A stretch of DNA of 64,000 nt from Gammaproteobacteria bacterium Ga0074134 (GCA_001464965.1 LNEJ01000056.1:1186-65185); one strand, 5' to 3'. Shown: positions 30,881 through 49,211, numbered from the stretch's first letter. The notes: generated from the sequence alone by a model not told the origin. Made by a program: numbers and translations.

Positions 30881-30974
<94 letters not shown>

Positions 30975-40195: not shown

Positions 40196-41473
40196 TCAAA
40201 ACTGCACGTCTGCCATCAGCCAGAACTTGTCGATGTCTTTGGCCAGGGTTGACGTGTTGCGCGCCACATTGTTTGCATTATCGTCCGCGCTATAGGCGGC
40301 ATATTTGGCGGTAAGCACCAATGACTTATTAATCTTCTTCGCCGCCTGCAGATTCCATTCGGAGCCATAGTCATAACCGAGATTATCGGAAGTATACTTA
40401 CGATAAACAGCCGTCAGGTTGACACCACCGAGAATCGTGCTGGCGCTCAGAAAGGTATCTTTAATCCCATCTCTTGGCGTGGCTAAAAACTTGTCCGCCC
40501 AACCGTTAAAGGCATGCAGCGTGGCCAGTGGCGTAGAAAAACCATAGGTGCCGTCACCGCTCAACACCTCATGGTTCAGCTTGATTTGCACATCACTGAC
40601 ATCGACGCCCGCCATCAGGTTGGTGTAGTAACCGTCCACCGTGCTCGCACCACCCGCGTATTTGCTTTGATTTGCATATTCCGCAGTGTATAAAAATTTC
40701 ACGCCCATCGACTCAGGTTTGTAGCCACCATCAAATCGCAATCCGAGGGTTTTGTTGGATAACGTGCTGGAAATGGGCTGTTCCTTGTCGTAATCCAGGA
40801 AATATCCATAGCCCACGATTGATACCGGTGTAAATCCCTTATAGGCGATGTTCAGCAGTTCACTCGACATATTAAGATTGCCCTGCGTACTGTTCGCCCC
40901 AAAGATACGCCTGACATTCATCACATGCCCATAAAATATCGTCGTGTCCGGCAGTGAATTATTGGTTACCGTAAAGGCGTCAAAGGCTTGAGCATTCTGG
41001 CGCCACTCCACGGTTCCGATGAAACGCTGGTTATCGAGATTGATACCTTGGCGGCCATACTTGAAAGTGGTATCAGGCAATCCTTTATAGCTTAAAAAAG
41101 CCTGCTGCACCTGCGCACCCTCGGGATCAGCAACGATCGGATATTGTGTCCGCCCGTTCACCGTACTGTTATAGTGCTCACTGCCTACCACATGCACATC
41201 CTGAAGCTGAATGAAGCCGGACAAATTCAGGTAATCGCCCGTCATATAGCCTAGCCGCGTGCGCAGCGTCGACGCTCCCGCTTGCTCGGTCTTCGTCGCA
41301 TCATCCACCCATTCATAGCGATAACGGAGTTGCCCGGAAACCTTACCGCTGCTTAGCGCCTCGACCAGCGTATCCGCGGCATAGGCCACCGGCATGGATG
41401 CTGCCATACCCCCAACCGCCAGAACGGTGAAAAGGGAAGGATTAAGCAGTGTGCTATAAATACTTTTTTTCAT
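40196..41473 (-). CDS. Outer-membrane beta-barrel porin (alginate-export/OprD-like) encoded at the end of the nrt-like operon
   Basis: Signal peptide ..ASMPVAYA. 425 aa of alternating beta-strand pattern with a C-terminal ..ADVQF. Directly follows the ABC transporter on the same strand. Confidence 0.5.
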   Translation of the reverse strand: MKKSIYSTLLNPSLFTVLAVGGMAASMPVAYAADTLVEALSSGKVSGQLRYRYEWVDDATKTEQAGASTLRTRLGYMTGDYLNLSGFIQLQDVHVVGSEHYNSTVNGRTQYPIVADPEGAQVQQAFLSYKGLPDTTFKYGRQGINLDNQRFIGTVEWRQNAQAFDAFTVTNNSLPDTTIFYGHVMNVRRIFGANSTQGNLNMSSELLNIAYKGFTPVSIVGYGYFLDYDKEQPISSTLSNKTLGLRFDGGYKPESMGVKFLYTAEYANQSKYAGGASTVDGYYTNLMAGVDVSDVQIKLNHEVLSGDGTYGFSTPLATLHAFNGWADKFLATPRDGIKDTFLSASTILGGVNLTAVYRKYTSDNLGYDYGSEWNLQAAKKINKSLVLTAKYAAYSADDNANNVARNTSTLAKDIDKFWLMADVQF

Positions 41474-41514
41474 GTTTCATACCCCTGGTTATAATCAATA
41501 ATTCAAAAAATAAT

Positions 41515-42306
41515 TTAGGCCGCTTCTTTTTTGTGCCGCGCGTACAAGAATTTCAATACCTCACCGCGCAGATGGACGTAACGCGCATCCTCGGCCAATG
41601 CCAGGCGATCACGCGGACGCGGAAGATTGACTTCCAGTACCTCGCCTATCGTTGCCGCCGGACCGTTAGTCATCATGACGATGCGGTCGGACAACAGCAC
41701 GGCCTCGTCCACGTCATGCGTCACCATGATGGCGGTGCTGCCCAATGCCGCGACGATACGCAGCAACTCATCCTGGAGATGGGCGCGCGTAAGGGCATCC
41801 AGCGCGCCAAAAGGCTCATCGAGCAGTAACACCTTGGGCTGCATCGAAAGCGCCCGCGCAATGCCGACACGCTGCTTCATGCCACCCGAGATCTCATGGG
41901 GCAGCTTATACATAGCGTGCCCCAAGCCAACCAACTCCAATGCTTCTTTTGTGCGTTTTTTCAGGCTCGCCTTATCCTCCTTGCGGCCAAACACGCGCTC
42001 CACGGCAAGATGGACATTGTCAAAGCAGGTCAGCCAGGGCAGCAGAGAATGATTTTGAAACACCACTGCACGATCCGGCCCGGGACCTGCAATCTCACGG
42101 CCTGCGCAAAATAAGGCGCCACCGGTAGCATCTATTAACCCCGCCACCAGATTAAGCAATGTTGATTTTCCGCAACCTGAATGCCCAATGATGGAAATGA
42201 ATTCACCCTGATCAATGCCCAAATCGATATCCTTTAGCGCAACAAATTTTCCTTTTTTTGTTTCAAAAACCATTTGCACTTTTTCTACCTGAACATATTT
42301 ATTCAT
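41515..42306 (-). CDS. ABC transporter ATP-binding protein of the NrtD/CmpD/TauB (NitT/TauT) type
   Basis: Walker A GHSGCGKST, signature SGGMKQRVGIARAL and Walker B LLLDEPF. Confidence 0.85.
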   Translation of the reverse strand: MNKYVQVEKVQMVFETKKGKFVALKDIDLGIDQGEFISIIGHSGCGKSTLLNLVAGLIDATGGALFCAGREIAGPGPDRAVVFQNHSLLPWLTCFDNVHLAVERVFGRKEDKASLKKRTKEALELVGLGHAMYKLPHEISGGMKQRVGIARALSMQPKVLLLDEPFGALDALTRAHLQDELLRIVAALGSTAIMVTHDVDEAVLLSDRIVMMTNGPAATIGEVLEVNLPRPRDRLALAEDARYVHLRGEVLKFLYARHKKEAA

Positions 42307-42333
42307 GACGAGGTCACCTAATATTACGAATGA

Positions 42334-43251
42334 TCAATATTCAAACCGTTTTGCCATAAGCAAAAGTGCCTGTTCAAGAAGCAAACCTATGATGCCAACC
42401 ACGAAAATGGCGATAATGATGTGCTCGACATTGAGGTTGTTCCATTCGTCCCACACCCAGAAGCCTATCCCCACGCCGCCGGTCAGCATCTCTGCCGCAA
42501 CTATCACCAGCCAGGCCACGCCTATCGCCAGACGGACACCGGTCATCATGTATGGCAATACCGCCGGGAACAGGATCTTGGTGAAGATCTTCCACTCCGA
42601 CAGGTTCAGCACGCGCGCCACGTTCATGTAATCCTGCGGAACCTTGCTCACGCCCACTGCAGTATTGATGATCATTGGCCAAATGCTGGAGATGAAAATC
42701 ACCCATATTGCAGCCGGCTGCGCTTCCTTGAACACCAGCAGCCCTATAGGCAGCCACGCCAACGGAGATACCGGACGCAGCAAGCTGATAATCGGAGATG
42801 CCATGCCGCTGAAAAAGGCGAAACGCCCGATCATGAAACCCAGTGGAATGCCGATCATGGCCGCCAAGCCAAAGCCCATACCGACACGCTCCAGGGAATT
42901 TAGAATATTCCAGCCGATCCCCTTGTCATTCGGACCATTGTCATAGAATGGATCGCTGAACAACTCAACTGCCGAGGCCCAGGTCTTGATAGGGCCAGGG
43001 AGGTTTTCACTACGCTGAGCGATTAACTCCCAGAGCATCACGAACAGCATCAGTCCTATTATCGGCGGCAGAATACGCTTTACAAAAAACTCCAAACTTG
43101 CCTTGATGTTTATTACCCTGGATTTACGCTCTGAGCCAACAGGTTTATCCGCAGCCACAGGTTCATGTATTGCCTTATGCACCACAATCTCCTCAGCGGT
43201 GGAAGACAAATCCTCATTTAGTCGCGCCTGCTTGATGCTTACTACAGTCAT
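42334..43251 (-). CDS. ABC transporter permease of the NrtB/CmpB (NitT/TauT) type
   Basis: Six TM helices and a BPD_transp_1 EAA-like loop. Sits between the substrate-binding protein and the ATPase. Confidence 0.8.
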   Translation of the reverse strand: MTVVSIKQARLNEDLSSTAEEIVVHKAIHEPVAADKPVGSERKSRVINIKASLEFFVKRILPPIIGLMLFVMLWELIAQRSENLPGPIKTWASAVELFSDPFYDNGPNDKGIGWNILNSLERVGMGFGLAAMIGIPLGFMIGRFAFFSGMASPIISLLRPVSPLAWLPIGLLVFKEAQPAAIWVIFISSIWPMIINTAVGVSKVPQDYMNVARVLNLSEWKIFTKILFPAVLPYMMTGVRLAIGVAWLVIVAAEMLTGGVGIGFWVWDEWNNLNVEHIIIAIFVVGIIGLLLEQALLLMAKRFEY

Positions 43252-43262
43252 GGCGGTCTACC

Positions 43263-44567
43263 TCATACCTTGATTTTGAAACTGTTGGCATATTTCTTCG
43301 GATCCTTGCCATCCCATACGACACCATCAATCAGCTTGCTGACGCGCATCACATCTTTTGGTACCGGCACCTTGACTTGGGCCGCAGCCTCTTTGTAGAT
43401 GTCGATCTGGTTTACTTTCTTGGCGATGGCCAGATAATCCGGATCGTCCTTGAGCAATTTCCAGCGTTTATGTTGCGTCATAAACCACATACCGTCCGAC
43501 AGATATGGAAAGGTGACTGCACCATCGTTGTAGAATTTCATATAATCCGGGTCCTTCCACTTCCTTCCCAAGCCATTGTCGTAATCACCGAGAAAACGGC
43601 CCTCGATAACCTCCTCCGGCGCATTGACATATGACTTGCTGGAAATGGTCTTGGCGACACCGGGCCGATTGGAAAGGGTATCTATATACTTCGATGCCTC
43701 CAGCACCGCCATCAACATGGCGCGTGTAGTGTTGGGATATTTCTGTGTAAATTCGAGTGTAGTGCCAAGAACTTTTTCAGGATGATCTTTCCAGATATCC
43801 TGAGTAGTTGCTGTGGTGAAACCCACCTTGTCGTAGATGGCCCGCGCGTTCCACGGTTCGCCCACGCAATAGCCATCCATATTTCCGATACGCATATTCG
43901 CTACCATTTGCGGTGGTGGCACGGTGATGGTTTTAACGTCGGTCAGGGGATTAATCCCATAGGCCGCCAGCCAGTAGTAAAGCCACATCGCATGCGTGCC
44001 CGTCGGGAAGGTCTGGGCAAAGGTATATTCACGTTTTTCACCCTCGATCTTATCAATCAGTTTCTTCAAGGATGCGCCATCGACCACACCCTTTGCCTTC
44101 GACTGATTCGATAGGGTAATGGCCTGTCCGTTGTTATTCAGGCACATCAACACAGCCATGTCCTTTTGCTGACCGCCGATACCCATTTGTACGCCGTACA
44201 TCAAGCCGTATAACACATGTGCCGCGTCAAGCTCTCCATTCACAAGCTTATCGCGCACTCCAGCCCAGCTCGCTTCTTTTGAAACAGTCACATCCAGGCC
44301 GTATTTTTTGTAGAGCCCCAGCTCATCAGCCATTACCACGCTGGCGCAATCCGTAAGTGGAATAAAGCCAATCTTGAGTGATTTTTTTTCCGGCGCATCC
44401 GAACCTGCGGCCCATGCACCAGAGCGGATACCGGGCGAGACCATGCTCATCAGGGCAAAGCCGCCCAACACCGCGCCTCCTGTTTTAAGAAAATCGCGGC
44501 GCGACATTCCATCCTTTTTAATTACACAGTTCTTTTTCTTAAATTCAGCATCATCACTCATCTTCAC
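43263..44567 (-). CDS. NrtA/CmpA-family periplasmic substrate-binding protein with a Tat signal
   Basis: SRRDFLKTGGAVLGGFAL twin-arginine leader. A ~400 aa NMT1/NrtA-like domain. Confidence 0.8.
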   Translation of the reverse strand: MKMSDDAEFKKKNCVIKKDGMSRRDFLKTGGAVLGGFALMSMVSPGIRSGAWAAGSDAPEKKSLKIGFIPLTDCASVVMADELGLYKKYGLDVTVSKEASWAGVRDKLVNGELDAAHVLYGLMYGVQMGIGGQQKDMAVLMCLNNNGQAITLSNQSKAKGVVDGASLKKLIDKIEGEKREYTFAQTFPTGTHAMWLYYWLAAYGINPLTDVKTITVPPPQMVANMRIGNMDGYCVGEPWNARAIYDKVGFTTATTQDIWKDHPEKVLGTTLEFTQKYPNTTRAMLMAVLEASKYIDTLSNRPGVAKTISSKSYVNAPEEVIEGRFLGDYDNGLGRKWKDPDYMKFYNDGAVTFPYLSDGMWFMTQHKRWKLLKDDPDYLAIAKKVNQIDIYKEAAAQVKVPVPKDVMRVSKLIDGVVWDGKDPKKYANSFKIKV

Positions 44568-44589
44568 TCACTCCCATTTTCGAATGCAC

Positions 44590-44638
44590 AAAAAAAGCGC
44601 CCATTCGCACAGGAACATTTCCTGTACAAATGGACGCC
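44590..44638 (-). terminator. Intrinsic terminator or attenuator hairpin between nasT and nrtA
   Basis: The minus-strand RNA is GCGUCCAUUUG-UA-CAGGA-AAUGU-UCCUG-UG-CGAAUGGGCGC-UUUUUUU: an 11-bp outer stem enclosing an inner hairpin, followed by seven U. It lies ~50 nt before the nrtA start. Confidence 0.5.
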
Positions 44639-44720
44639 GTTGTCCGCATGGCAAACCGCCGTTGGCTTGCCTGTGTTTGTGATGTCAACCCGCCATTGGG
44701 TAACTACACGTTAAAAAGTG

Positions 44721-45293
44721 TTATGCCAGAATATCCGCAGCCGTATTAATGCTGTTGGCCACGTCAATCAAGCGCATGTTACGATCCATCGCCATCTTGC
44801 GCAGCAAGTGAAAGGCCTCGTCTTCCGTGCATTTACGCTGCTTCATTACCACTCCCTTGGCGCGCTCTATATGCTTGCGTTCCGCCAGGGTTGAAGTAGT
44901 CCTTTCCAGCTCGCGCTTGAGCGCTTGAGACTCGTCAAACCTTGCCATCGCAACATCAATTATAGGCTTGACACGTTCGATACTGAGTCCGCCCACCACA
45001 TAGGCAGTTACGCCCGCCTTCACGGCGGCACGGATTTTTTCACTATCGCCATCATGGGTAAACATCACTATAGGGCGAGGCTGATCACGACTGATTACAC
45101 ATATATGCTCTAAAGTATCCCGGTCCGGTGATTCCATATCGATAATAATCACATCGGGTTGTAATTCGCGGACACGCACATACAGGTTATCACCGGGATC
45201 AACTTGAGCGGCAACACTATGCCCTGCCTCCTTGAATGCCTGAAGAAGCAAAGCGTTTCGCTGCTGATCCTCGTCTACGAGCATGATGCGCAT
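44721..45293 (-). CDS. nasT: ANTAR-domain response regulator (NasT/AmiR family)
   Basis: Receiver domain (MRIMLVDED.., D-box). The C-terminal ANTAR helix reads ..ERKHIERAKGVVMKQRKCTEDEAFHLLRKMAMDRNMRL... Confidence 0.8.
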   Translation of the reverse strand: MRIMLVDEDQQRNALLLQAFKEAGHSVAAQVDPGDNLYVRVRELQPDVIIIDMESPDRDTLEHICVISRDQPRPIVMFTHDGDSEKIRAAVKAGVTAYVVGGLSIERVKPIIDVAMARFDESQALKRELERTTSTLAERKHIERAKGVVMKQRKCTEDEAFHLLRKMAMDRNMRLIDVANSINTAADILA

Positions 45294-45520
45294 CTTGATG
45301 CATGTCCCGCATTAATCTGTGATATTCAATTGAATCTAACCAGAGCATGAGCAATCAATATGCCAACGTTATATATTTAAATTAATTACAATTAAATCAA
45401 TATATTGAAAACAATCTTCCAGACCATCCCTCACCGTGGAGTTTTGGCATGCACTTTTTTGGTGAGAACTCCATTGCTGATGAGCGCCCATGGTGCATAC
45501 CCATCACAGACACTGCAAAC

Positions 45521-46486
45521 TCATTTGCGCAATTGCAACAATACCGCCTCCGCCTTGGCGCCGAGAAAAACATACAACCCCAGCCCCACCAGCAAACCCA
45601 CCGCCGCCAGCATCATCCATACCGCCTGCACCAGATCATGACCATCGCCTAGCGCGGATTTGAACATCAGCAATAACGACTCAATCGATACCGCAATCAG
45701 AATCGCCGCCATAAAACGCGTAATGGTGCGGCGCGTTGAACTGTGGCGGAAGATGTCCTTGTGCATCAACACTTCCTCTTCAAGCGTGGTCTTTCCGAGA
45801 TCAAACACCGCCAATGCGAGGGTAATAAAAACGATCACGCTGAAGGGTTTTAATTGCAGCTCGTGCGTATTATGTTCGGTATAAAGCAGCGATACCACTT
45901 CACTAAACGCGGAATGAAGCAGCGCTGCAACCACGGCAAACAATCCGGTCACAATCAGAATATAAATCAATTTGAAATAGGGCTGAAAACGCCGCCGTCC
46001 GGTATCTCCCATAAGAAACTCGACCGTTTCTCCAAGATCGATATCAAGCACAATATAACCCTTGACCTGCTGCTTTTCGTCAAATAGCTTCATTGCAGTG
46101 GAGATGCACAGCTTTCTGCTTGCGCTGGACAGATAGGGCTCTGTCACCACAACGGATTTACCTTCCTGCGCCAGCAGATAATAGGGCCGCTGACTGCGAT
46201 CCTTTCCTTTGCCGTCACTGGCCGCCATGATTTTTCCGTGCGTATTGATATTGTCACTGGCTTGAATACCGCTGGCGTCCAATGCATATAGGAGATCCAC
46301 GAAGGGATAGTGCTGAACCAGGCACTGTATCGACTTTTTTTGAGTATCCGCATCATACAGGAGCCGTTCATCGGCCATGCCGGTGATAATCGAGGCCAGC
46401 AATTCCTGTATTGCGGCACGGTATTCATGATAACGTTCGATAATACTGATATAACTCATGGTGCTCATGGACTTCCTCTTCACCAA
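45521..46486 (-). CDS. Hypothetical membrane protein: an N-terminal ~170-aa soluble sensor-like (PAS/Cache-like) domain plus a C-terminal four-TM domain with weak PsiE-like character
   Basis: Four clear hydrophobic helices in the last 150 aa. AT-richer than neighbours. Lies upstream of the nasT promoter region. The family assignment is tentative. Confidence 0.4.
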   Translation of the reverse strand: MVKRKSMSTMSYISIIERYHEYRAAIQELLASIITGMADERLLYDADTQKKSIQCLVQHYPFVDLLYALDASGIQASDNINTHGKIMAASDGKGKDRSQRPYYLLAQEGKSVVVTEPYLSSASRKLCISTAMKLFDEKQQVKGYIVLDIDLGETVEFLMGDTGRRRFQPYFKLIYILIVTGLFAVVAALLHSAFSEVVSLLYTEHNTHELQLKPFSVIVFITLALAVFDLGKTTLEEEVLMHKDIFRHSSTRRTITRFMAAILIAVSIESLLLMFKSALGDGHDLVQAVWMMLAAVGLLVGLGLYVFLGAKAEAVLLQLRK

Positions 46487-46709
46487 GGACGCACTACGGT
46501 CCTGTCACCTTGCATGAAGCATTTATTACGCCAACAATAATTTTATTGCCATACAATACGTTGCATAAAACAATACGCCGCCATCAGATAACTTCGCACT
46601 CTTCTGGAACAACCCATCCACGCTAAGGTGACAAGATCGGGCAAAGGCGGGAGAATATGACTAGCGTGGCCCAATCCATGTGCCAAGGTTAAACACCAGA
46701 GAAAACCGC

Positions 46710-47240
46710 ATGAAAAAAGACCAGAAGCAAGACACAATCATCCCCATCAATATCGCTGTGCTAACGGTATCCGACACCCGCACTGAAGAGACGGACACCT
46801 CCGGCAGGCTTCTGGCTGAAGGCCTGACCACGGCAGGACACACTCTTGCTGAGAAAGTGATCGTTTTAGATGATATCTATAAAATCCGCGCCATTCTGTC
46901 GGGCTGGATTGCGCAGAGCAGTGTCAACGCGGTGTTCATCACTGGCGGTACCGGTGTCACTTGGCGCGATATCACACCCGAGGCCGTGCGCCCGTTGCTG
47001 GACAAGGAGATTGATGGGTTCGGCGAGCTGTTCCGTTCCATCTCTTACCAGGACATCAAGACCTCAACATTGCAATCACGCGCGTTCGCCGGTATCGCCA
47101 ATGGCACATTGATTTTCGCCATGCCCGGCTCGACCAACGCCTGCCGCACCGCATGGGATCATATCCTCCAGCACCAGTTGGACAGCCGTCATCGTCCATG
47201 CAATTTTATTGAGCTTCTTCCACGCCTGAAAAAAGATTGA
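46710..47240 (+). CDS. moaB: Molybdenum cofactor biosynthesis protein B
   Basis: Collinear with E. coli MoaB (..IAVLTVSDTR..TSG..L., ITGGTG, FAMPGSTNACRTAW). Confidence 0.8.
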   Translation: MKKDQKQDTIIPINIAVLTVSDTRTEETDTSGRLLAEGLTTAGHTLAEKVIVLDDIYKIRAILSGWIAQSSVNAVFITGGTGVTWRDITPEAVRPLLDKEIDGFGELFRSISYQDIKTSTLQSRAFAGIANGTLIFAMPGSTNACRTAWDHILQHQLDSRHRPCNFIELLPRLKKD

Positions 47241-47284
47241 TCGCCACGCCCATGACTGACCCTTGCTTCACTGAAAAAGAATTG

Positions 47285-48490
47285 ATGAGTGTCGATGACG
47301 CCTTGGTATTGCTCTTGACCAAAGCACAGCCAGTCGATGAGATTGAATACGCCGATATATCAAACACTCTAGGACGGATTCTGGCGCAACCCCAAACATC
47401 GACCCTCAATGTACCCACCGCTGACAACAGTGCAATGGACGGCTACGCCTTCACTTACAGCGATATCAGTGCGCAGGGCGAGGCGCGGCTGCGCGTCTCG
47501 CAACGCATCCCCGCGGGACAGCCCGGCCACCCTTTATTGCCCGGAACCGCGGCGCGGATTTTCACCGGCGCACCCTTGCCGGCCGGCGCCGATACCGTGG
47601 TAATGCAGGAGCACTGCCAGGTCGAAGAAGATAGGGTTATCATCCAGCACCCGATAAAAAGCGGCCAGAACGTGCGGCACGCAGGGGAGGATATTGCCGC
47701 TGGCACTATCATACTCACGGCCGGGACAAAGCTGCGTCCGCAAGACATGGGACTCGCCGCATCGGTGGGCTTGGCGCAACTGCCCGTCTATCGTACCCTG
47801 CGCGTGGCGATATTCTGCACCGGCGATGAACTTGTCGTACCCGGCAATCCGCTTACACCGGGCAAGATCTACAATGCCAATCGCTATACTCTCACAGGCC
47901 TGCTGCATACGCTTGGCTGCGAGATCATCGACCTGGGGATTGTGCCAGATAATCTGGCGGCAACCCGCACTGTCCTTGCTGCGGCGGCACGGCAAGCGGA
48001 TGTTGTCATCACCAGCGGCGGTGTATCCGTAGGAGAAGAAGACCATGTCAAGGCCGCCGTCGATGGCTTGGGGCACATTGACTTGTGGCGCATCGCCATG
48101 AAGCCTGGCAAGCCGCTCGCCTTCGGCGCCATTGGATCGACGCCGTTTTTCGGCCTGCCTGGCAACCCCGTCTCGGTGTTTGCGACCTTCTGCCTGTTCG
48201 CGCGCCCGTTTATTCTGCGCCGCCAGGGAATGATTAACGTGCTTCCGCAAACCGTACATGTAGAAGCAGATTTCGATTGGCCAAAAGCAGGCCACCGCCG
48301 CGAATACCTGCGTGCCCGGTTGGCCACTGCGGATGACGGAAAAACCCGCGCCGTCATTTTTCCGAACCAAAGCTCCGCTGCGCTGTTTTCAGTCAGTTGG
48401 GCGCAAGGCATGGTTATCATCCCCGAAGGGCATACTGTGCAACGCGGCCAAATGGTCAGATTTATTCCCTTCACGGAATTGTTTGCATAA
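47285..48490 (+). CDS. moeA: Molybdopterin molybdotransferase
   Basis: MoeA N-terminal and C-terminal domains plus the MoCF_biosynth core (..VVITSGGVSVGEEDH..). The start is taken at MSVDDAL. Confidence 0.85.
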   Translation: MSVDDALVLLLTKAQPVDEIEYADISNTLGRILAQPQTSTLNVPTADNSAMDGYAFTYSDISAQGEARLRVSQRIPAGQPGHPLLPGTAARIFTGAPLPAGADTVVMQEHCQVEEDRVIIQHPIKSGQNVRHAGEDIAAGTIILTAGTKLRPQDMGLAASVGLAQLPVYRTLRVAIFCTGDELVVPGNPLTPGKIYNANRYTLTGLLHTLGCEIIDLGIVPDNLAATRTVLAAAARQADVVITSGGVSVGEEDHVKAAVDGLGHIDLWRIAMKPGKPLAFGAIGSTPFFGLPGNPVSVFATFCLFARPFILRRQGMINVLPQTVHVEADFDWPKAGHRREYLRARLATADDGKTRAVIFPNQSSAALFSVSWAQGMVIIPEGHTVQRGQMVRFIPFTELFA

Positions 48491-48515
48491 TTCCATTTCG
48501 CGATACGAAGTGAAA

Positions 48516-48568
48516 TGTAGGGTGCGTTCCACGCACCAATGGTAATGGTGCGTGGAACGCACCCTACA
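48516..48568. repeat. Palindromic REP-like hairpin element (copy 2 of 2)
   Basis: tgtagggtgcgttccacgcaccaatggtaatggtgcgtggaacgcaccctaca is a perfect 22-bp stem. It sits between moeA and mobA. Confidence 0.5.
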
Positions 48569-48614
48569 AATATAAACATCCCCTCAGCGGGGAAGGGCTA
48601 ATGTGAGAAGGAAA

Positions 48615-49211
48615 ATGACTGCACTAGCACGCAGCAACATCACCGGCGTCATTCTCGCTGGAGGACTGGCCCGCCGCATGGGTGGCGTTGATAAAGGATT
48701 GATTGACTTACGCGGTCAACCGCTTGTTGCCCATGTCATTGCTGCCCTTGAACCGCAAGTAGAAAATATAATTATCAGCGCTAACCGCGACCTTGATCGT
48801 TATACTGAATTTGGTTATCCGGTGGTTACCGATACCCTACCAGATCACCCCGGCCCGCTCGCAGGCATTCTCAGCTCGATGCTTGCTGCAACCACCGAAT
48901 ACATCCTCACCGTTCCTTGTGACACCCCTCTCCTGCCGCCAGACCTGGTGTTGCGCCTGTCATCCACGCTCACGAGCGAACTTGCCGATGCGTGTGCCGC
49001 ACATGATGGCATGCGCATCCAACCCCTGTTCACCCTGCTGCGCCGCGAACTCGCCGCAAGTATTCTTGATTATCTCAACAATGGAGATAACAAAGTCGAA
49101 CTCTGGCTGCGACGCCAGAAGCTCACGCTTACCGATTTCTCTGGCCAACAGGCTGCGTTTTACAATATCAATACCCGCGAAGAACTGATGGCTATTGAGA
49201 GTGAGGTGTGA
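48615..49211 (+). CDS. mobA: Molybdenum cofactor guanylyltransferase
   Basis: ILAGG..RMGG.DKGL nucleotide-binding motif and PCDTP. Confidence 0.8.
   Translation: MTALARSNITGVILAGGLARRMGGVDKGLIDLRGQPLVAHVIAALEPQVENIIISANRDLDRYTEFGYPVVTDTLPDHPGPLAGILSSMLAATTEYILTVPCDTPLLPPDLVLRLSSTLTSELADACAAHDGMRIQPLFTLLRRELAASILDYLNNGDNKVELWLRRQKLTLTDFSGQQAAFYNINTREELMAIESEV

Follow-up and report, generated by a model that had tools for sequence, protein, structure and literature searches.

The 64,000-nt stretch of DNA from Gammaproteobacteria bacterium Ga0074134 analyzed here (LNEJ01000056.1:1186-65185, hereafter the window) carries an array of co-directional genes on its minus strand. In the order of transcription these are a gene for a membrane protein with a Cache-type sensor domain and four transmembrane (TM) helices (Cache-4TM), a 227-bp spacer, a nasT-type antiterminator gene, a leader, nrtA, nrtB, nrtD and a porin gene, as determined from open reading frame (ORF) listing and domain scans. 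On the strength of sequence, folding and comparison, a NasT/ANTAR transcription attenuator located in the leader very probably controls the high-affinity nitrate/nitrite uptake operon that follows it. The genes and the terminator had been claimed in an earlier note on this DNA, and all were recovered at the positions given there by ORF listing, domain scans and folding. The features, with the evidence used for each, are presented below.

45521-46468, minus strand: Cache-4TM gene, 315 aa (Pfam dCache_1, homologue alignment, AlphaFold2 (AF2) and Foldseek, hydropathy and charge).
45350-45365, minus strand: candidate sigma54-type -24/-12 box, TGGCATATTGATTGCT (pattern match).
44721-45293, minus strand: nasT-type antiterminator gene, pseudo-receiver plus ANTAR, 190 aa (Pfam ANTAR and Response_reg, PDB matches).
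44562-44720, minus strand: nasT-nrtA leader, the predicted attenuator (sequence, fold, Rfam, covariance model).
44688-44701, minus strand: hairpin P0, ACCC-AAUGGC-GGGU, with an ANTAR-type hexaloop (sequence reading and minimum free energy (MFE) fold).
44650-44671, minus strand: hairpin P1, GGCAAGCC-AACGGC-GGUUUGCC (fold and alignment).
44632-44645, minus strand: hairpin P2, GGAC-AACGGC-GUCC (alignment and covariance model).
44590-44638, minus strand: intrinsic terminator, a 20-bp stem (44638-44597) and U7 (44596-44590) (fold and alignment).
43263-44561, minus strand: nrtA, twin-arginine translocation (Tat)-exported nitrate/nitrite-binding protein (Pfam NMT1_2, PDB 2g29, ligand residues).
42334-43251, minus strand: nrtB, permease (TIGR01183 over its cut-off).
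41515-42306, minus strand: nrtD, ATPase without an NrtC-type regulatory domain (TIGR01184 over its cut-off).
40196-41473, minus strand: predicted 18-strand outer-membrane channel of the OprD/Occ/AlgE/MOMP fold, 425 aa, last gene of the operon (Pfam Alginate_exp, AF2, Foldseek).
46680-49211, plus strand: moaB-moeA-mobA, molybdenum-cofactor synthesis, divergent, listed for context only (domain scans).

A gap between the regulator and the transporter genes, which the earlier note had put at 153 bp, is present. Its length is 153 nt when measured from the listed GTG start of nrtA (44567) and 159 nt if nrtA begins, as is likelier, at the ATG at 44561, which lies 9 nt after a GGGAG Shine-Dalgarno sequence. 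The MFE of the leader is -64.7 kcal/mol (z = -5.2), and none of 200 shuffled sequences folded equally well. The long hairpin and U7 tract previously proposed as an intrinsic terminator were borne out, with 20 pairs in the stem at 44638-44597 followed by U7 at 44596-44590. Three hexaloop hairpins precede or overlap this terminator, and in all three loops position 1 is A and position 4 is G (AAUGGC in P0, AACGGC in both P1 and P2). The dual-hexaloop ANTAR target that was sought in the gap is represented by P1 and P2, with P0 as an extra hairpin; P0-like hairpins also occur in the related loci L025, L035, L063, L067 and L077. Binding of NasT to the NalA leader depends on A1 and G4 in two hexaloops (PMC10783516). 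The sequence GGCGUCC, which in P2 makes up the final three loop bases and the 3' arm, is at the same time the first 7 nt of the terminator 5' arm (44638-44632), and as a result of this sharing P2 and the terminator are mutually exclusive.

Scanning with Rfam in gathering mode gave no match in the leader, the only match in the window to reach gathering score being a tRNA gene at 30887-30974 on the minus strand. In E-value mode the narK RNA, a nitrate-transporter leader family (RF03032), matched 44631-44694 with 30.4 bits and E = 0.003. No RF03032 match at gathering score was obtained in eight related loci. Consensus positions 1-15 of RF03032, GGCACAgcucUUGCU, resemble a sigma54 -24/-12 promoter, and the 5' end of this model looks like a DNA signal that was captured within an RNA family. 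The spacer between the nasT stop codon and P0 is itself a site of insertion in some loci. At L009:11750-11920 about 160 bp has been inserted, flanked by terminal inverted repeats of some 24 bp (TCCTACTGTGTCACAAAGCG...); this insert looks like a miniature inverted-repeat transposable element, and palindromic inserts are found in the same spacer in L018 and L025.

Conservation of the leader was analyzed in an alignment of 12 distinct leaders gathered from related loci (A2). P1 and P2 were paired in 99.1% of cells, with compensatory changes in four of the five inner P1 pairs, and registers slid by 1-3 columns paired in at most 52% of cells. Pairing in the terminator was 82%, and eight of its pairs carried changes on both sides. 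A covariance model of P1 plus P2 (R1) matched the window exactly once, at 44629-44673 on the minus strand with 56.9 bits. As an independent test set, 80 metagenomic loci were fetched by the NasT protein alone, none of which had been used in building R1; in scanning the metagenomes, NasT alignment A5 took the place of A4, which had proved too divergent. R1 produced 59 matches in these loci, 58 of which were on the NasT strand directly behind the gene. The matches had 99.5% of cells paired and 78 cells with double-sided changes, a result equalled by none of 500 shuffles. Hexaloop position A1 was retained in 38/39 P1 and 48/50 P2 loops from the independent loci and position G4 in the same proportions (38/39 and 48/50), and a stable hairpin with a T-run began inside P2 in 48 of the 55 distinct R1 matches. 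Since R1 matches stand behind NasT genes in loci outside the model set, the P1/P2/terminator design is, on this comparative evidence, a family-wide attenuator. L008 has two NasT-type attenuators in tandem (L008:9843-10012 and L008:11001-11170), of which one precedes the Cache-4TM gene and the other nrtA. The P1/P2 hexaloops, the overlap of P2 with the terminator and the conservation of this design across loci support the earlier reading that transporter expression would depend on NasT-mediated read-through. That the hairpin and U7 are merely the terminator of nasT, with nrtA served by its own promoter and the hexaloops coincidental, is scarcely credible: a terminator behind a gene is ordinary, but only about 15 nt without a promoter-like site separate the U-run from the nrtA Shine-Dalgarno sequence, and the P1/P2/terminator overlap is kept with covariation in dozens of independent loci.

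The regulator is a REC-ANTAR protein (Pfam ANTAR 6.9e-21, 74.2 bits; Response_reg 6.4e-12, 46.1 bits) that matches Rv1626, a REC-ANTAR structure in the PDB (1e-21), as well as the ANTAR portion of NasR. A Phyllobacterium plasmid (L090) encodes an ANTAR regulator next to nrtABC-nirB and a NasS-like gene, and the window protein shares 46% identity with it. D52 of the window protein occupies the phospho-acceptor position, where orthologues have D, N, A, G, E or K; at the position equivalent to Lys109 they have G, D, N or E and never K, the L090 NasT being no exception. The motifs SPDRDTLEH and AGVSAYVVDGL are retained among orthologues, canonical NasT included. With a variable acceptor and no conserved Lys109 equivalent, the regulator is by its sequence a pseudo-receiver of the NasT/AmiR kind and would be expected to be governed by a protein partner (PMC3795266); a phosphorylation-driven two-component regulator was rejected because acceptor Asp and Lys109 equivalent are not conserved. 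The canonical partner of NasT is NasS, and NasT in the window is probably controlled by a protein partner and not by phosphorylation.

No second NrtA/NasS paralogue was present in the 64-kb window, and no NasS gene was found beside nasT in the Cache-linked loci. Gene arrangements could be counted in 72 of the NasT-centred loci: the leader was directly behind nasT in 46/72, NasS was directly behind nasT in 11/72, and both were there in 0/72. A NasS-like gene was observed anywhere on the contig in 1/36 loci with a window-like NrtA. The window is therefore a distinct nasT architecture without NasS locally. Elsewhere, NasS-like genes were seen behind a NasT-type leader (L099:912-2694, with two leaders) or after nrtD (L149:12529 and L157:14549). 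In several lineages (L004/L015:4166-4747, L018:4129-4698, L115:361, L138:122) nasT is directly preceded by another ANTAR gene, a divergent paralogue with 33-46% identity. Large GAF/PAS-GGDEF-EAL proteins flank nasT at L004:1202-3457 and L045:10867-13953, which deserves mention because cyclic di-GMP binds NasT in P. putida (PMC10783516).

Upstream of nasT, the box at 45365-45350 is the sole match to TGGCAYN5TTGCW in the 64 kb and is situated 57 nt before the nasT start codon. Comparable boxes (TGGCACGGTTAATGCT and similar) occur ahead of the leaders in L063, L067, L070, L077, L083 and L085, and the Rfam narK consensus also opens with a sigma54-type box. Control of nas genes by NtrC/RpoN together with NasST is established (PMC10783516; PMC3795266), and in Methylomonas NtrC or nitrogen limitation affects nasT, nrtABC and a porin (PMC12799797). 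The box may be regarded as a putative NtrC/RpoN-dependent promoter, and we infer a dual control in which nitrogen limitation would start transcription and NasT would decide read-through. Two other candidates were not retained: a TGGCAC-N5-TTGGG box near 46680 was discounted as it has no -12 GC, and half-matches to NtrC sites in the spacer upstream of nasT were too weak to count as a feature.

The genes behind the leader encode a transporter of the nitrate type. NrtA has a twin-arginine motif (SRRDFLK) and matches Pfam NMT1_2 at 2.3e-106, NrtB passes TIGR01183 (nitrate ABC permease) with 257.1 bits against a cut-off of 209.05, and NrtD passes TIGR01184 with 340.9 bits against 291.8. The best PDB match of NrtA is Synechocystis NrtA (2g29, 7.9e-84), with CmpA at 3.2e-65. 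Nitrate is held in Synechocystis NrtA by W102, Q155, H196, G240 and K269 (PMC13204499), and W101, Q148, H192, G236 and K265 of the window protein align identically with all five of these ligands. Models for taurine, sulfonate and SaoX were far under their cut-offs, and orthologous nrt clusters run on into nirBD, cbiX, NarK-type major facilitator superfamily (MFS) genes or cobA. Nitrate/nitrite is well supported as the predicted substrate because the five ligands are kept, the NCBIfam nitrate models are passed and orthologous clusters adjoin nirBD; on these same points, the earlier view that the substrate could not be decided from sequence was too cautious. It is very unlikely that the transporter carries another small anion, for example cyanate, bicarbonate or a sulfonate. 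Such a reading can draw on the NMT1_2/NrtA fold, which is common to the CmpA, CynA, TauA and SsuA families, and on the match to CmpA itself, but NrtA is the top PDB match, the nitrate ligands are all retained, TIGR01183 and TIGR01184 pass while the taurine, sulfonate and SaoX models do not, nirBD and NarK genes adjoin the orthologous clusters and molybdenum-cofactor genes lie next door. These last genes, moaB-moeA-mobA, diverge from the Cache-4TM gene, and their synteny is retained in four close relatives and seen in L002 and L006-L009. Such a neighbourhood fits with cofactor supply for nitrate reductase; nitrate or nitrite reductase genes were not found within the 64-kb window. Contigs of an activated-carbon metagenome carry identical proteins, and relatives with 93% identity are metagenome-assembled genomes of Gammaproteobacteria. 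In Sulfuriferula plumbiphila (L089, AP021884.1) nrtA and nrtB are separated by a globin gene, and an insertion sequence (DDE_Tnp_1) has entered the nas cluster. A gene for a PP2C-phosphatase/Ser-Thr-kinase fusion recurrently adjoins the NarK-type MFS gene in nas clusters (L045:14206-17100, L060:13120-16100, L089:2059-6274 and others).

The last gene of the operon encodes a porin which reached 41.5 bits with Pfam Alginate_exp (cut-off 25.2) and only 36 with the NCBIfam Opr model, far below the cut-off of 150. The AF2 model (pLDDT 76.4) has 18 strands, and Foldseek returned TM-scores of 0.60-0.65 to the 18-strand channels OccAB, OccK/OprD, AlgE and MOMP. Searching the PDB with the porin sequence gave no match, so that the fold search alone was informative. 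Homologues follow nrtD in the clade of the window and in many other loci, and the porin was present in 6/20 window-like loci extending to nrtD. In S. plumbiphila the porin gene stands between nrtB and nrtD, and in L112 and L119 directly behind the nasT leader. The natural inference from the modelled fold and the gene order is that the channel would provide a dedicated outer-membrane route for nitrate/nitrite. In the literature searched, no paper ties an Alginate_exp porin or a Cache protein to nitrate assimilation. The porin and the sensor-like protein had both been described as non-standard parts of a nasST system, which is correct, though both recur in this lineage.

These elements suggest the following mechanism. 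Under nitrogen limitation the putative sigma54-type promoter at 45365-45350 would drive nasT, and transcription would enter the 159-nt leader and, as sequence, folding and comparison indicate, stop at the 20-bp/U7 terminator. By analogy with the established ANTAR mechanism, active NasT would bind P1 and P2, and perhaps also P0, at their A1/G4 hexaloops. With P2 held closed the terminator could not form, because the GGC of the P2 loop and its 3' arm are the first 7 nt of the terminator 5' arm, and RNA polymerase would read through into nrtA, nrtB, nrtD and the channel gene, the products of which would together carry nitrate/nitrite across both membranes. The pseudo-receiver of NasT is probably under the control of a protein partner, the canonical one, NasS, not being encoded nearby.

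Several observations weigh against this interpretation. The narK RNA match falls below the gathering threshold (30.4 versus 43.2 bits), and P2 is nearly invariant, so that its pairing rests on dual constraint and not on covariation. The 99.5% pairing of the R1 matches was counted in alignment A6, and because A6 had been fitted to the model, the pair counts are somewhat inflated. The sigma54 box taken alone is not significant, as 25 of 100 shuffles yielded at least one match. Finally, with no NasS seen, a response to nitrate is not distinguished from one to nitrogen limitation alone for this class.

When compared with known systems, the locus is closest to NasS-NasT acting on the NalA or nasA leader of Paracoccus denitrificans, Azotobacter vinelandii, Pseudomonas putida and P. 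aeruginosa. Common to both are a REC-ANTAR regulator with a pseudo-receiver, two A1/G4 hexaloop hairpins of which the second overlaps an intrinsic terminator, upstream control of the NtrC/sigma54 type (predicted here) and nitrate assimilation as the target. In contrast to those systems, the window has no NasS gene in 64 kb, its nasT sits immediately upstream of its own attenuator, its leader has the third hairpin P0, and the operon consists of nrtABD plus a porin gene and not of nasA or nirBD. The RF03032 narK RNA shares with the leader a hexaloop hairpin (CCAACGGCGG) followed by an ACAAAGnCGUC element upstream of nitrate transporter genes, whereas the window leader lacks the sigma54-like 5' portion of the model and scores below gathering. 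Both the NasR-nasF leader of Klebsiella and AmiC-AmiR of P. aeruginosa have ANTAR antitermination at a leader terminator in common with the window. AmiR is further alike in having a pseudo-receiver controlled by a protein partner; it differs in being paired with the amide-binding AmiC, while NasR has a NIT sensor domain where the window regulator has REC. No AmiC-type partner of the periplasmic-binding-protein fold, no amidase target and no NIT sensor partner was present in the window cluster. With cyanobacterial NrtABCD the locus shares the NrtA fold with its five nitrate ligands and matching NrtB and NrtD families, but NrtA in the window has a Tat signal in place of a lipoprotein anchor, there is a single ATPase without the NrtC regulatory domain, and the operon is joined to an outer-membrane channel gene. 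That channel has in common with OprD/Occ, AlgE and MOMP the predicted 18-strand barrel (TM 0.60-0.65) and Alginate_exp membership; it differs in having no sequence match in the PDB and in being encoded within a nitrate transporter operon.

The Cache-4TM gene is the first gene of the array. Its mechanical ORF reaches 46486 from a TTG, but homologues begin at Met7, and the gene is accordingly 45521-46468 (315 aa); the sensor-like gene that the earlier note had placed at 45521-46486 is there, with its start corrected. It had also been called AT-rich, which does not hold for the gene (GC 0.49-0.51), the AT-rich part being the 227-bp spacer before the ANTAR gene. The description as a membrane protein with a soluble sensor-like N-domain was accurate, with a dCache_1 N-domain (47.9 bits, cut-off 45) and four C-terminal TM helices. 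In the AF2 model (pLDDT 73.6) the N-terminal 160 or so residues form a PDC domain, which by Foldseek resembles the sensor domains of KinD, DctB and Tlp3 (5e-7 to 1e-5). Residues 1-150 contain no hydrophobic segment (maximum Kyte-Doolittle 0.89), signal peptide or N-terminal TM helix, and K/R residues cluster on the N-side of TM1 and flank the cytoplasmic sides of the four C-terminal helices, for which reasons the PDC domain is predicted to be cytoplasmic. Cache-4TM thus differs from the Cache/PDC histidine kinases and chemoreceptors, in which a periplasmic sensor lies between two TM helices and is joined to a cytoplasmic output domain; no output domain follows its four TM helices. The TM2-TM3 loop, KTTLEEEVLMHKDIFRHSSTRRTITRF, is almost invariant among homologues (alignment A1), and acidic residues in TM2 and TM3 (D223, E263) and Arg residues in the PDC domain are invariant. 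Over 1,300 homologues and 333 species-level genome hits make up this large family, and identity of its members to the window protein is 57-94%. The 4TM module also exists as stand-alone proteins of 150-190 aa, and no Pfam or NCBIfam family covers it, either in this protein or in those homologues.

The genomic context of this family was surveyed in 80 species-level Cache-centred loci, with linkage defined as within 10 kb. The gene was near nasT, nrtABD, the porin gene, nirBD, cbiX or a NarK-type MFS gene in 28/80 loci and unlinked in 52/80. At least five orders were found: Cache-4TM-nasT-nrt-porin (the window), nasT-Cache-4TM-nrt-porin (L008), nasT-nrt-porin-Cache-4TM, nasT-nrt-Cache-4TM and nirBD-Cache-4TM-cbiX-nasT. 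Nitrogen-assimilation genes were the only neighbour families to recur across clades, the remaining small neighbour clusters being clade-restricted (by eye a LysR-type regulator, an RlmI-like methyltransferase and a protein of the metallo-beta-lactamase fold). A common aroE/bfd/bfr/hemB context, as in L001, was tested for the unlinked genes and was absent. In L008 the gene stands behind its own P1/P2/terminator leader (56.7 bits), which ends 20 nt before the ribosome-binding site, and in at least 13 loci Cache-4TM is the distal gene of a NasT-attenuated operon. The model also matched ahead of the Cache gene of L049, but weakly (13.9 bits) and with a P1-like hairpin only, and this match was discarded. 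From these neighbourhoods we conclude that the Cache-4TM family appears to be functionally tied to nitrate/nitrite assimilation.

What the gene does in the window may be read in three ways. In the first, it is a mere neighbour with its own promoter, outside the attenuated unit and without a part in the system. The 227-bp spacer with its sigma54-like box parts it from nasT, no ANTAR motif lies upstream of the window Cache-4TM gene, and the majority of the family is unlinked to nas genes; against this, the order is identical in four close relatives (L002, L006, L007 and L009), and the linkage survives rearrangement in L008 and in distant lineages. This seems unlikely, if by no means negligible.

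The second way of reading the gene gives the family a role in assimilation which has gone unrecognized: Cache-4TM may be a membrane-anchored sensor that controls the NasT pseudo-receiver where no NasS is adjacent, and so the missing signal-sensing partner of NasT in the NasS-less class. Nitrate, nitrite or a metabolite that reports nitrogen status would be the ligand of the cytoplasmic PDC domain, and the loop would hold or release the pseudo-receiver at the membrane, a role likened to that of NasS and AmiC, which act in solution. The linkage to nas genes in 28/80 species loci and at least five gene orders argues for such a sensor, as do nitrogen-assimilation genes being the only recurrent neighbours, the position directly behind its own NasT-type leader in L008 and the last place in a NasT-attenuated operon in at least 13 loci. 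The protein has no output domain, yet it has the invariant cytoplasmic loop and invariant Arg residues within the PDC domain. In addition, a NasS-like match was found on only 1/36 contigs with a window-like NrtA, and in L149 and L157 a NasS-like gene takes the same end-of-operon slot. Set against these points, the gene was within reach in 1/72 usable NasT-centred loci, although many of the contigs are short, 52/80 Cache-centred loci are unlinked, and NasS may be encoded elsewhere in the genome. A sensor function is accordingly put forward as a tentative and rather doubtful proposal.

Equally doubtful is the third reading, in which Cache-4TM would be a transport accessory, either a nitrite/nitrate channel gated by a ligand or a protein that regulates NrtABD or NirBD post-translationally, and not a regulator of NasT. 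In the E. coli nirBDC-cysG operon the slot between nirD and the siroheme gene holds nirC. Clusters of the Sulfuriferula type place the Cache-4TM gene in the same slot, between nirD and the siroheme ferrochelatase gene cbiX and often translationally coupled (L045, L089), and elsewhere the gene terminates nrtABD-porin operons. The analogy with E. coli is positional only, as Cache-4TM is not homologous to NirC, which is an FNT channel. An accessory of this kind would be consistent with the invariant acidic residues D223 (TM2) and E263 (TM3) and with the stand-alone 4TM homologues of 150-190 aa, but the four-helix module has no known transporter fold, and its most conserved part is the cytoplasmic loop and not a pore lining.

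The riboregulatory core of the locus is textbook NasT/ANTAR attenuation, a well-documented example which introduces no new principle; what is new lies in the layout without NasS, in an 18-strand channel encoded by the operon itself and in a Cache-4TM gene that recurs. A large class of NasT genes feeds directly into its own attenuator without an adjacent NasS, mostly in sulfur- and iron-oxidizing Gamma- and Betaproteobacteria, which raises the question of how nitrate is sensed in these hosts. The recurrence of the channel in nrt operons suggests that nitrate does not always depend on general porins to cross the outer membrane. As a family tied to nrt, nirBD and nasT and sometimes under NasT control, Cache-4TM is a concrete candidate for a regulatory or transport function that is missing, and one that can be tested, the cultured Sulfuriferula plumbiphila offering a host for genetics.

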